Under the pieces are notes generated by a model. That model worked only from the letters and a program-made list of their open reading frames with translations, was not told the origin of the DNA and did no database searches. Positions 32,963 through 61,087 of a stretch of 64,000 nt of DNA are shown here, one piece after another. Made by a program: the position numbers and the translations under genes. Numbering within the stretch: position 1 is the first letter of the stretch; each line of letters starts with the position of its first letter. The stretch lies in NCBI RefSeq assembly GCF_057098645.1, contig NZ_CM169472.1; one strand, 5' to 3'.

Positions 32963-33127
32963 GCCTTATCTCCACCTCTTCGCGTCATTACGCGATATTC
33001 ATTAAAGTGGCGAAAGCATGACAGCAATCACAAAAAAATGAAAATAACAAAAAGAGAAAACACTTTTGCCATTTTGCTAACAAACAGGAAGGAGATGCGA
33101 GGGAGAACGCGCTCCCTCGAGAGGAAA

Positions 33128-33217
33128 TCAGTGCAGCGCGGCAGTCAAACCCACGGCTACGATCAAACCGAGGACGATAATCGTTGTTACCAGTGAAAAT
33201 TTAAGGTCGGTGCTCAT
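33128..33217 (-). CDS. ynhF: Small membrane protein YnhF (29 aa)
   Basis: Hand translation of the minus strand gives MSTDLKFSLVTTIIVLGLIVAVGLTAALH*; below the ORF-track cutoff. Confidence 0.75.
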   Translation of the reverse strand: MSTDLKFSLVTTIIVLGLIVAVGLTAALH

Positions 33218-33515
33218 CAAGTTTTCTCCTTTTTTATTACCACACAAAAAGTGATATTACGCATTTTTACACACTGTGATGAAAAAATCTCCCGTCATTT
33301 ATAATGATAAGTGTTTTTACCACTTCCCCTTTTCGTCAAGATCGGCCAAAATTCCACGCTTACACTATTTGCGTACTGGCCATTGACCCCTTCCTGACGC
33401 TCCGTGTCGTTTTTCCGGCGTACCGCAACACTTTTGTTGTGCGTAAGGTGTGTAAAGGCAAACGTTTACCTTGCGATTTTGCAGGAGCTGAAGTTAGGGT
33501 CTGGAGTGAAATGGA

Positions 33516-42106: not shown

Positions 42107-42183
42107 GCGTTCATAGCTCAGTTGGTTAGAGCACCACCTTGACATGGTGGGGGTCGTTGGTTCGAGTCCAATTGAACGCACCA
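42107..42183 (+). tRNA. valV: tRNA-Val (anticodon GAC)
   Basis: 77-nt cloverleaf including CCA; anticodon loop cttGACat. Confidence 0.93.
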
Positions 42184-42187
42184 TCCT

Positions 42188-42264
42188 GCGTCCGTAGCTC
42201 AGTTGGTTAGAGCACCACCTTGACATGGTGGGGGTCGGTGGTTCGAGTCCACTCGGACGCACCA
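42188..42264 (+). tRNA. valW: tRNA-Val (anticodon GAC), second copy
   Basis: 77 nt, 4-nt spacer after valV; differs from valV by compensatory changes in acceptor and T stems. Confidence 0.93.
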
Positions 42265-42371
42265 GATTTTCTTAATCTGGTCTTCTACTTTTTCCCTCTG
42301 CTTCTTCTCTGTATCCAATACGTTAAAAGATTTACACTGTCTTCGTATGCGTTATCAGAAGGAGAATCGCT

Positions 42372-42677
42372 ATGGCAACTTTGTTACAACTTCATTTTTC
42401 TTTCAATGGCCCATTTGGCGACGCAATGGCTGAGCAGCTTAAACCGCTTGCTGAGTCGATTAATCAGGAACCTGGTTTTCTGTGGAAGGTATGGACCGAA
42501 AGTGAAAAGAACCACGAAGCCGGTGGGATCTACCTTTTCACTGATGAAAAAAGCGCCCTTGCCTATCTGGAAAAACACACTGCCCGACTGAAAAATCTCG
42601 GCGTTGAGGAAGTTATCGCCAAAGTTTTCGATGTCAATGAGCCACTGAGTCAAATCAATCAGGCAAAACTCGCCTGA
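42372..42677 (+). CDS. ydhR: Putative monooxygenase-like small protein YdhR
   Basis: 101-aa ORF following valVW; hairpin plus T-run after its stop (42684..42705). Confidence 0.85.
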
Positions 42678-49985: not shown

Positions 49986-50387
49986 GTTGGAGTCATTACC
50001 TACGCTGCTGACTCTGTCCCCAACACCAGATATTTTCCCTAACCCGATAGTGTATGAGAAAAGATTTAACGCCGATAAACTAATCCTTTATGGTTAGGAG
50101 AAAAAATAATGTGGTTATTCTGGGCTCTTAACATTGATCATTATCAATTAAAATTACAAAGCAAGAAATTATAAGTGAACTGATATTTATTATCATTTGA
50201 AATAAATTTAACTTAAGCGACAATTATTTGTGACGGTCATTGCAGAAAATAAAAATAATATTATCGCTATAAATTAAAATACATACCGAAATTCGTATAA
50301 TTTCAGCAGTTGTTATTTAGAATGATTAACTGGACCGCAACTGAAGCAAGAATATCAGGATGAAGCTTATCGCCTCATCCTGAATGG

Positions 50388-57976: not shown

Positions 57977-59464
57977 TTATCCGACGCTGTGTTCAAGACT
58001 GATGGCGAGGAGTTTTTGTGCTTCAACGGCAAATTCCAGCGGCAGTTCCGAGAACACGTCTTTGCAGAAACCGTTAACAATCATCGAGATGGCGTCTTCT
58101 TCGCTGATCCCGCGCTGCAGGCAGTAAAACAGTTGATCTTCACCAATACGTGATGTTGTTGCCTCGTGCTCCAGTTGTGCGCTGTTATTGCGACATTCGA
58201 CATACGGGAAGGTATGCGCCCCACAATTAGCGCCAATCAGCATTGAGTCGCACTGAGTGAAATTGCGCGCATTGGTTGCCGTCGGCATGATTTTCACTAA
58301 GCCGCGATAACTGTTCTGACTATGTCCGGCAGAGATCCCTTTCGAGATAATGGTCGATTTGGTGTTTTTACCGATGTGGATCATCTTGGTGCCGGTATCC
58401 GCTTGCTGATGACCGCTGGTCAACGCCACTGAGTAAAACTCACCAATGGAGTTATCGCCGCGCAGAATGCAGCTGGGATATTTCCACGTAATCGCGGATC
58501 CGGTTTCTGATTGCGTCCATGACATTTTGCTGTTTTCGCCTTCGCACAGAGCACGCTTGGTGACGAAGTTGAGAATACCGCCGGTGTTGTTATCGCCAGG
58601 GAACCAGTTTTGTACCGTGGAATATTTCACCTCGGCGTTTTTATGGATGATGACTTCCACCACTGCCGCGTGTAACTGATAGCTGTCACGCACCGGAGCG
58701 GAACAGCCTTCAATGTAGCTGACGTAGCTGTCTTCGTCGGCCACCAGAATGGTGCGCTCAAACTGCCCGGTTTTTTCCGCGTTAATGCGAAAATAGGTGG
58801 AAAGTTCCATCGGGCAGCGCACGCCTTTAGGCACATAAATAAACGTACCGTCAGAGGCTACCGCCGCATTAAGCGCGGCAAAGAAGTTGTCATTCCCCGG
58901 CACCACGGTGCCGAGATATTTACGCACCAGTTCCGGGTGATCGTGGATCGCCTCACCAAAGGAACAGAAAATAATTCCCTGCTCCGCCAGTTTTTCGCGA
59001 TAAGTAGTGGCAACCGAAACTGAGTCGAAAATGGCATCCACCGCCACCTCTTTGCCTTCCCGCACGGGAACGCCCAACTGCTCAAACGCCGCCTCCACCT
59101 CTTTACTTAAAAAGGCGTTCGCGCCAGTTTGCTGCACCGCGCCAGGTTCAGACGCGCAAGTGTCGTCACAATTACCGCACGATGGTGCCGAGTAGTAGCT
59201 GTAATCCTGATAATTCAGCTTGTCGTAGTGCGCTTTCAACCAGTGCGGTTCTTCCATCTCCAGCCATGCGCGATAGGCGTTTAGACGAAACTCCAGCATC
59301 CACTCCGGCTCATTACGCTTCGCCGAAATTGCGCGCACCACCTCTTCGTTTATCCCCTTTGCCAGCTCATCGGTGGCTAACTGGGTGAAGAATCCTTCTT
59401 TATAATTCAGCGGGCCGCCGGTCCAGGTTTTGACATCGTCAGTTGCTTCAGTATTACGAGACAT
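57977..59464 (-). CDS. sufB: Fe-S cluster assembly scaffold SufB
   Basis: Start taken at [10 protein letters not shown] (ATG 59462-59464), giving 495 aa; the track ORF is extended 13 codons upstream. Confidence 0.93.
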
Positions 59465-59472
59465 AGTACCGC

Positions 59473-59841
59473 CTATACCCCAAAGCTTTCGCCACAGCCA
59501 CATTCATTCTGGGCTTTAGGGTTGTGAAATTTGAATATCTGATTAAGTCCTTCACGAACGAAATCGACTTCCGTGCCATCAATAAACGGCATCGCTTGCA
59601 GCGGGACAAACAGCTTCGCGCCGTCGTGTTCAAACAGCAGATCGTCTTTGTCCGGCTCGCTAACACTGTCGAGCACATAGCCAAAGCCCGCGCAGCCCGT
59701 TTGCTTCACACCTAAGCGCACGCCGACCATACCTGGCTGCTTTGCCACCAGCTCGCGGATGTGTATCGCCGCTGCGGGTGTCAGCGTTAAGCCTTGCCAG
59801 GCGAAATCCTGTGGGTTAAAGGTTCCTGAATGCATGTCCAT
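59473..59841 (-). CDS. sufA: Fe-S cluster A-type carrier SufA
   Basis: 122 aa, C-terminal CGCGESF motif. Confidence 0.93.
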
Positions 59842-59885
59842 CGATTTACCTCACTTCATCGCTTTCAGCGTATAACAGCATGTTA

Positions 59886-59900
59886 GTGATAATGATTATC
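59886..59900. promoter_or_regulatory. Fur box in the suf promoter region
   Basis: gtGATAATGATTATC, a near-perfect Fur consensus half-site array, about 45 bp upstream of the sufA start. Confidence 0.55.
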
Positions 59901-60130
59901 AGTTCAACCCAGCAAACGCAGGGGCTTTACCGTAAAACATGCTTTTTGCCTGCTTTTAATAAGCATAGACCCTGATGTGTGGGTTAACAGGCACGCTAAG
60001 AATTAGGTATCTCATTGTTAGATAATGGTTATTATCTAAGGAGCATTAAGGCTGTGATGAAAAAGAAAAGTTGTATTGAAAATGACTATTTAAGAGATAG
60101 GTAAAAAAGTGCAGCATTCAGAAATAAGAA

Positions 60131-60215
60131 AACCCTTAAGTCTGTGCGACACAGGCTTAAGGGTTTCTACCCCATCCGGCGCTTATCTCCGGCACTCTCA
60201 GTGGCTTAGCTCTTG
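60131..60215 (-). ncRNA. rydB: Candidate small RNA RydB (sufA-ydiH intergenic); boundaries approximate
   Basis: Minus-strand hairpin (60140..60176) followed by a U-rich tract; position matches where I recall rydB lying in K-12. Sequence identity not verified. Confidence 0.3.
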
Positions 60216-60388
60216 AAGGGGCGATAAGAATAATCTCATAAAGCTAACCCGCCGTTTTAACACAAACTGCGATTAGTATTATTTTTGAACAATATCAGGC
60301 GGGTAGATAAGCAGTATTAAGAAGGTCATCGAACCTGGACGGAGGTTAATCCAGGTCGATTTGGCGAACTTGCGGCATTAAGTCAGGA

Positions 60389-60577
60389 TCAATGCACGCC
60401 CAGACGCCAGGCAAAGTAGATTTCTTCTTTTAATTCAGCAGAAGAGAGAGTAAGCAGGTCAGCAAATTCAAGTTCTAGTTGTTTCAGACGTTTGAGATAT
60501 TGGGCAGGTGAAAGATTGCTCTGGTCACGGCGTAAAAATTCAATGGCCAGCTGGGTGGGATCAAGTTGAGTAGACAT
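60389..60577 (-). CDS. ydiH: Small protein YdiH (62 aa)
   Basis: Start taken at MSTQLDPTQLAIEFL (ATG 60575-60577); the track ORF is extended 27 codons. Confidence 0.8.
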   Translation of the reverse strand: MSTQLDPTQLAIEFLRRDQSNLSPAQYLKRLKQLELEFADLLTLSSAELKEEIYFAWRLGVH

Positions 60578-60676
60578 AGCATCCTCGCTTTTAGACAAGA
60601 CCTGCACAGTATACCACCGTTTACTGTGCAGATAATGACCAAAAGCAATATGCGTCACACTTTTCTGGTGACAACG

Positions 60677-61087
60677 TCACAAAATGGCGGTCGTCAATCG
60701 TGACGAACAGCACAAACGCCCTTTCTCATCGAAGATTTCAATCTGCCAGACCTGGTGACGCGAACCGAGATGCAACGGTTTGCATACGCCGCGTACCCGC
60801 CCTTCTCGTGCCGAGCGGACGTGGTTAGCATTGATTTCCAGACCAACCACTTTTTGCTCACCTTCGGTACATAAATAACCGGCAACGGAACCGATACTTT
60901 CGGCCAGTACCACGGATGCACCTCCATGTAGCAACCCGAAAGGCTGCTTTGTCCGCGAGTCTACTGGCATTGTCGCTTCAAGGGTGTCATCACCAATATG
61001 TTCAAAGCGAATATCCAGTAACCCCACCATGTTTCCTTCACCCATGGCATTCAGTGCTTCCAGGGTGATTTTTCGTTTCCATATCAT
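60677..61087 (-). CDS. menI: 1,4-dihydroxy-2-naphthoyl-CoA hydrolase MenI (YdiI), hotdog-fold thioesterase
   Basis: 136-aa PaaI-type thioesterase; overlaps ydiJ by 4 nt. Confidence 0.88.
   Translation of the reverse strand: MIWKRKITLEALNAMGEGNMVGLLDIRFEHIGDDTLEATMPVDSRTKQPFGLLHGGASVVLAESIGSVAGYLCTEGEQKVVGLEINANHVRSAREGRVRGVCKPLHLGSRHQVWQIEIFDEKGRLCCSSRLTTAIL

Follow-up and report, generated by a model that had tools for sequence, protein, structure and literature searches.

Which transcripts and control signals lie between ydiH and sufA, and to which of the neighbouring genes do they belong? The question was addressed in a window of 64 kb (the whole stretch of DNA that was analysed, 64,000 nt), in which the span 59842-60388 corresponds exactly to the sufA-ydiH spacer. 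The explanation that best accounts for the evidence as a whole, and to which we give a probability of about 85%, is that the spacer contains two adjacent minus-strand units under independent control, rydB and the promoter of the suf operon (PsufA). All the central features of this arrangement, rydB as well as the control of the suf promoter, are already known from the biology of K-12.

Gene order and conservation of the spacer

On the minus strand, the order of genes is menI (61087-60677), ydiH, the 547-bp spacer, sufA and sufB. The coding sequences of ydiH (60389..60577) and of sufA (59473..59841), the latter being the first gene of sufABCDSE, were taken from the list of open reading frames and from the RefSeq annotation of identical DNA, and both are encoded on the minus strand. 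Over the 1301 bp compared, the region 59400-60700 showed 100% identity with numerous chromosomes of E. coli O145:H28, and of 5426 complete E. coli genomes 5421 contain it.

Elsewhere in the window, the minus strand of 33125-33515 gave a full-length match to the Rfam family STnc550 (396 bits), the 3′ part of which encodes a hydrophobic peptide of 29 aa, MSTDLKFSLVTTIIVLGLIVAVGLTAALH, which we take to be ynhF-like. Two tandem tRNA genes are present on the plus strand at 42107-42180 and 42188-42261, and a match to the 'antisense RNA' HPnc0260 (42226-42388, minus strand), which overlaps the complement of the second tRNA, is probably an artefact of the model.

Identity and structure of RydB

The earlier note on this DNA had placed rydB in the spacer and had proposed a Rfam/Infernal scan, in which the lack of any hit would speak against that placement. 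The scan matched RF00118 to the minus strand at 60222..60162 over the full length of the model (positions 1-61 of 61), with 81.6 bits (gathering score 50) and E = 9e-18, and a local scan with the same family gave E = 1.4e-19. In K-12, rydB (b4430) is annotated at the equivalent position (1764713-1764780, 68 nt, corresponding to about 60167-60234 of the window), and the K-12 sequence is identical across RydB. The placement was thus confirmed, and it is virtually certain that the RNA encoded in the spacer is RydB.

The RydB 61-mer occurs once per genome in 5421 of the 5426 complete E. coli genomes, its identity never falling below 95%, and the arrangement ydiH-rydB-sufA on one strand was found in 31 loci. 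Despite this, the gene is missing from RefSeq (PGAP) records of pathogenic E. coli: in records identical to the window, such as NZ_CP028379.1, rydB carries no feature of any kind, and the K-12 reference alone annotates it.

Mature RydB, of 61 nt (60162..60222, minus strand), was delimited by the RF00118 match, by the 3′ end mapped in K-12 by Term-seq, by covariation in the closing helix P1 and by a 5′ end predicted from the promoter. Its body consists of P1 (GCCCC/GGGGU), which encloses two hairpins, P2 and P3 (CCGG/CCGG). Compensatory changes were found in all five pairs of P1 (5/5), both in 33 diverse homologues and in 90 unique copies. When 25 syntenic sequences were compared, the whole structure was 94.8% paired, with 15 pairs changed on both sides, a result matched by none of 500 shuffles, and slid controls collapsed in the same test. 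As the fold of the 61-nt body alone is thermodynamically ordinary (z = -0.01), support for the structure rests on this covariation.

The downstream hairpin and the 3′ end of RydB

Next to the RydB body, an inverted repeat with arms of 17 nt, 94% complementary, was located at 60130-60146/60150-60166. As minus-strand RNA it folded with -22.0 kcal/mol (z = -6.35), none of 200 shuffles being equally stable, and it is followed by UUUUCUUAUUUCU. Compensatory changes affected 12 of its 17 pairs when the 25 syntenic sequences were compared, and 92% of the cells were paired. The hairpin is a real, selected RNA structure. The strong minus-strand hairpin with a U-run described in the earlier note does exist, but the coordinates given for it there, 60140-60176, were displaced by about 10 nt.

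The stem-loop (60166-60130) and its U-run (about 60133-60120), which together occupy 60120..60166 of the minus strand and were delimited by the fold, the repeat finder and covariation, have the form of an intrinsic terminator, in that a stable G+C-containing stem-loop is directly followed by a U-rich tract. A scan for consensus terminators between 59400 and 60800 returned no sites, the hairpin having been missed presumably because of a C.A mismatch in its stem. A published list connects rydB with a Rho-independent terminator (PMC12306157).

The K-12 Term-seq data contain a single 3′ end for rydB, at 1764708(-), which corresponds to 60162 of the window, and two or more of the three growth conditions yielded reads in the millions there (2.17 and 4.14 million; Adams et al. 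2021). The same study gives 0.9-2.2 million reads for ssrA, 1.2-3.9 million for csrB, 3.7-6.0 million for glmY and about 0.4 million for ssrS, and the end of RydB is among the most abundant small-RNA ends in the published Term-seq data, akin to those of tmRNA, CsrB and GlmY. Total RNA was sequenced there, and the 3′ ends may reflect termination or RNase processing (Adams et al. 2021). The end at 60162 lies 8 nt past P1, reaches 5 nt into the 5′ stem arm and has no U-tract. Its location inside the arm and the lack of a U-tract imply that it is not a point of intrinsic termination, and its dominance implies that mature RydB is about 61 nt long. That RydB ends at 60162 is highly likely. Judging from its sequence and covariation, the hairpin may well be the terminator of the primary transcript, to be removed later. 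Adams et al. (2021) list no 3′ end at the U-run (K-12 17646xx), which is compatible with rapid processing of such an end or with a signal below threshold.

Alternatively, full-length RydB could extend to the U-run, with a size of about 95-103 nt, and the end at 60162 would then be a secondary product of decay or of library preparation. Such a product would agree with the conservation of the hairpin and U-run, with the minimum free energy fold of 60222-60122, in which both modules, the RydB body and the hairpin, are retained, and with the annotation of Salmonella rydB as 105 nt, which would take in the hairpin. However, millions of reads fall at 60162 and none is listed at the U-run, and the Rfam model stops at the very same nucleotide, 60162. 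Moreover, the original Northern blot reportedly gave an estimate of about 60 nt, which also counts against the longer form. We therefore regard full-length RydB as improbable and processing to 60162 as the preferred reading. With its 3′ end preceding the hairpin, mature RydB does not carry at that end the terminator hairpin and U-tail of an Hfq-dependent sRNA, and this fits its listing as Hfq-independent (PMC3933206).

The predicted rydB promoter and its independence from ydiH

Upstream of RydB, the invariant TGnGAnnAT columns of alignment A1 revealed a predicted extended -10 element (TGaGATTAT, 60230..60238, minus strand), located 7 nt upstream of G60222 and lacking a recognisable -35. A -10-like hexamer also lies 4-11 nt before P1 in 99 of 103 copies of the family (among the matches listed), non-syntenic members included. 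From this promoter geometry, the 5′ end of RydB is probably at about 60222. The 5′ end annotated for K-12 rydB (about 60234 of the window) lies 12 nt upstream of the predicted start, and would fall inside the predicted -10.

The arrangement of neighbouring genes was mapped by tblastn. In the Citrobacter loci L003, L009 and L032, about 2 kb are inserted after ydiH, and the distance from sufA to rydB with its hairpin is still about 350 bp. The reverse is found in L058 and L118, where rydB lies beside ydiH and about 2 kb are inserted before sufA, and in L120, L059 and L064 rydB directly follows menI, with no ydiH detected beside it by tblastn. These breaks in synteny indicate that the hairpin goes with rydB and is more than a terminator of ydiH, and also that RydB is not obligatorily a fragment of the ydiH 3′-UTR. 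The possibility, contemplated in the earlier note, that the hairpin was only the ydiH terminator was rejected, because the hairpin follows rydB where ydiH is distant or undetected.

It could still be argued that RydB is cut from the 3′-UTR of ydiH and that the hairpin serves as the terminator of the ydiH operon, as ydiH lies 167 nt upstream in the same orientation, the hairpin immediately after it is weak and has a poor U-run, and the K-12 Term-seq tables give no 3′ end for the interval from ydiH to rydB (Adams et al. 2021). The hairpin concerned (60324..60356, minus strand), a possible ydiH terminator, begins 33 nt past the ydiH stop, and its region folds with -17.8 kcal/mol (z = -2.2). An origin in ydiH is nevertheless very unlikely, given the Citrobacter loci in which a gap of about 2 kb separates ydiH from an rydB that remains with its hairpin by sufA, the three loci in which ydiH was undetected beside rydB, the invariance of TGnGAnnAT 7 nt before P1 and the fact that non-syntenic copies also begin 4-11 nt past a -10-like hexamer. 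Separately from the origin of RydB, the weakness of the 60324-60356 hairpin and the lack of a listed K-12 3′ end between the genes suggest that ydiH transcripts may run on into rydB.

The equation of RydB with the hairpin itself, as a short transcript made of hairpin and U-tail, which the earlier note had tentatively drawn, has a negligible probability. In its favour are the strength of the hairpin, the U-run behind it and an overlap of about 5 nt with the 3′ end of the Rfam model. Against it, the RydB body lies directly 5′ of the hairpin, where the K-12 annotation, the Rfam model and the core conserved throughout the family are also found, the abundant 3′ end at 60162 precedes the hairpin, and in other genera unrelated stems take the place of its sequence and the RydB core is kept.

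Candidate regulators of rydB

At 60255..60273 (minus strand), 18 bp upstream of the -10 of rydB, there is a marbox-like element, ATCGCAGTTTGTGTTAAAA, as a hypothetical site for SoxS, MarA or Rob. Class II marboxes lie in forward orientation over the -35 region and follow a spacing rule relative to the -10. The columns A..GC......TG.TAAA of this element (60273-60255) are invariant or nearly so in alignment A1. It has two mismatches to AYnGCACnnWnnRYYAAAY, and such matches occur 17 times in the window against 17.6 expected, that is, not above chance. In one array study, marR, marB and rydB were grouped in a single paraquat-induced cluster that depends on SoxR (PMC2064960). Because of its conservation, its spacing and this expression study, the marbox was kept as a hypothesis, and a direct SoxS/MarA/Rob site upstream of rydB is proposed tentatively, as a possibility with the odds somewhat against it. 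No open-access paper linking rydB to a marbox was found, nor any binding or mutational data in that literature.

A CRP half-site reading of TTTGTGTTAAAA was also considered for E. coli and discarded, as its centre would be at about -34.5 instead of -41.5, and conservation does not extend to the second half-site. Other reports tie RydB to CRP, ppGpp and FNR/RcsB. The functional literature that was found on RydB amounts to three statements: that its overproduction lowers the expression of rpoS, which is repeated in secondary sources, that deletion of rydB results in persister and H2O2 phenotypes (preprint), and that it is independent of Hfq.

A wider RydB family

An exact-pattern scan of species-representative genomes with GCCGGAGATAAGCGCCGG returned at least 120 loci, and the RydB core was recognised in 106 among the matches listed. 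RNAs of the RydB type make up a multi-copy family that extends through the Enterobacterales, with Pantoea, Erwinia, Rouxiella, Serratia, Sodalis, Kosakonia and Enterobacter among the genera represented. Genomes that carry two copies are frequent. Examples of the family among loci L003-L122 are L029/L030, L034/L035, L056/L057, L021/L022 and L084. The variants fall into classes (AGAGCUAAGCC, AGAGCUAACGCC and AGAGCUACC), each copy having its own promoter and terminator, and in the ACG class P2 is extended and covaries. The sampled variants all score above the gathering score of RF00118, so that the family is already within Rfam.

In six copies of the Sodalis or Acerihabitans type among the matches listed (L007, L041, L042, L084, L089 and L116), a CRP box close to the consensus (TGTGA-N6-TCACT) occupies a class II position, with its centre about 41-43 nt upstream of P1. 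In copies of this type the CRP box is followed by a conserved block, AGAAAAGCGCAUCGGCUACUUACCUCCUCGCAAGAGGGAGUACAGCAAAGG, for which no match was found in Rfam.

A RydB paralogue was also observed in Atlantibacter (L043, 3936-4000, minus strand), about 270 nt from the SraC/RyeA-SdsR locus.

The Fur box and the core of PsufA

Just upstream of sufA, the earlier note had marked a Fur box at 59886-59900, where the plus strand reads gtGATAATGATTATC. A Fur site was defined here by a match to the 19-bp consensus GATAATGATAATCATTATC or to the 7-1-7 motif TGATAATnATTATCA, and the sufA site matches both. The sequence TGATAATGATTATCA, at 59887-59901, is a perfect 7-1-7 motif (15/15), and 59882-59900 scores 16/19 against the 19-bp consensus, being the sole match to it in 64 kb (0.04 expected); the 13-mer GATAATCATTATC gave in addition an exact match on the minus strand. 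Allowing up to two mismatches, two sites for the 7-1-7 motif were found in the window, compared with 0.17 expected by chance. The Fur box (59882..59901, with no strand assigned) has the ATG of sufA (59841) 41 nt downstream, and both the box and the adjoining ACTAACATG are invariant in alignment A3, which comprises the sufA upstream regions of 18 Enterobacteriaceae.

The other 7-1-7-like site of the window is TGATATTTATTATCA, at 50181-50195 on the plus strand, with one mismatch.

The +1 of PsufA was placed by mapping published mutation coordinates onto the sequence, from which the hexamers were then read. In a 2025 paper on IscR, the Fur site of PsufA was mutated from ATA to TAT at -26 to -24, and the IscR-site mutants consisted of a deletion from -56 to -51 and a C to G change at -50 (PMC12594620). 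As the sole ATA of the Fur box is at 59899-59897, the +1 is A59873, and with this start position -50 is C59923, as the IscR-site mutant requires. The -10 is consequently TAACAT (59885-59880) and the -35 TTGAAC (59907-59902), and the promoter core (59873..59907, minus strand) is invariant in alignment A3. An extended -10 for PsufA at 59880-59872 was dropped, as it is incompatible with the +1 (59873) and the -10 (TAACAT) that follow from the published coordinates.

With this start, the Fur box spans -9 to -28 of PsufA, between the -35 and the -10 and covering part of the -10 hexamer. A Fur box that fills the gap between both hexamers is the classical occlusion geometry, and in the K-12 literature Fur is listed as a repressor of sufABCDSE. 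The position of the box, its conservation and the published Fur-site mutation all agree with the control of suf by Fur that had been proposed, and the box very probably functions as such at PsufA.

Further control elements of suf

With what we take to be the IscR type 2 consensus, an exact and unique match, AAAGCCCCTGCGTTTGCTGGGTTGAA, was placed on the minus strand at 59903..59928 (59928-59903), positions -30 to -55 of PsufA. This putative site is conserved in alignment A3 and agrees with the published IscR-site mutations (PMC12594620). Further upstream, the block CAGGGTCTATGCTTAnTAAAAG (59955..59974, minus strand, -82 to -101 of PsufA) is invariant in the 18 Enterobacteriaceae of A3. This block may be an NsrR half-site.

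Two more candidate elements on the minus strand were located with the help of A3. An IHF-like site, WATCAAnnnnTTR, lies at 60008..60020 and is exact in Citrobacter, with two mismatches in E. coli, and an OxyR-type activating site, CTAT-n7-ATAG-n7-CAAT, forms a conserved block at 60066..60100 (-193 to -227), which is retained even where rydB does not adjoin sufA. The strict tetranucleotide consensus of OxyR gave no match at up to three mismatches, and the putative OxyR block was assigned on the basis of its conservation in A3 and of the literature, according to which suf is activated by IHF, and OxyR binds far upstream of suf and needs IHF (PMC8593673). The putative OxyR, IHF and IscR sites, located here through motif matches and conservation, correspond to what reviews describe for the K-12 suf promoter, where these elements are established.

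A perfect 9-4-9 palindrome, TTAGATAAT/ATTATCTAA, was noticed at 60018-60039, in which Fur-like hexamers are arranged with non-canonical spacing. According to A3 it is Escherichia-specific, and it overlaps the IHF-like site. It was rejected as a second Fur site on account of its more than three mismatches to the 19-mer and its restriction to Escherichia. A promoter-like site, ATCACA-16-GATAAT, which a genomic SELEX study of sigma-70 assigned to sufA, also overlaps the palindrome.

Discussion

In the arrangement proposed here, transcription of rydB would start at or near G60222 from the conserved extended -10 and would pass through the 61-nt RydB body into the stem-loop and U-run (60166-60120), acting as an intrinsic terminator. 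This terminator would also insulate the upstream activating sites of suf, the first of which is reached about 20 bp beyond it. Cutting and trimming of the primary transcript would then leave the abundant 61-nt species ending at 60162, and RNase III or RNase E plus exonucleases are likely candidates for this maturation. In the adjacent unit, Fe-Fur would bind 59887-59901 and repress PsufA by promoter occlusion, apo-IscR at 59903-59928 would activate PsufA under iron limitation or oxidative stress, and OxyR (about 60066-60100), brought near by IHF (about 60008-60020), would do so in those conditions as well.

A further reading, speculative and, taken jointly, rather unlikely, is that RydB is not a classical base-pairing sRNA but a stable, highly abundant, 3′-processed structured RNA, matured like M1, 4.5S and tmRNA through loss of its own terminator, that its invariant loops UUCAAGAGCUAAGCC and GAGUGCCGGAGAUAAGCGCCGG bind a conserved protein and that its multi-copy family is wired, copy by copy, to different regulators. 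If that were true, the copies of Escherichia and Citrobacter would have a class II marbox for SoxS/MarA/Rob, and those of Sodalis-like genomes a CRP site of class II. RydB shows a Term-seq abundance like that of tmRNA and CsrB, has a covarying structure and lies beside a suf promoter controlled by oxidative stress and iron, and it is still an orphan; its processed 3′ end, its extended -10, the marbox-like element and the multi-copy family provide testable leads to its function.

Compared with RydB of K-12 (RF00118, b4430), the locus is the same, menI-ydiH-rydB-sufA, the RNA sequence is identical and the Rfam match is full-length. No biological difference was apparent, the K-12 annotation having 68 nt compared with the 61 nt of Rfam and Term-seq. 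Likewise, nothing differs from the Fur/IscR/OxyR-IHF promoter of K-12 sufABCDSE, as the same sites are found at the positions implied by the published mutations and reviews, with one more invariant block, 59955-59974, seen here. The promoter predicted for rydB recalls the class II marbox promoters, such as those of micF, fumC and inaA, in its candidate element in forward orientation 18 bp before the -10, in the lack of a recognisable -35 and in the SoxR-dependent induction of rydB seen in one array study, but the match to the marbox is at chance level in the window. Finally, M1 RNA, 4.5S RNA and tmRNA lose their terminator, and their ends are trimmed to a few nt past the closing helix. RydB is like them in its abundance, which is of the same order, in its lack of a U-tail and in ending 8 nt past P1, before the terminator hairpin, a likeness drawn by analogy only, RydB not being known as essential or as part of a ribonucleoprotein.
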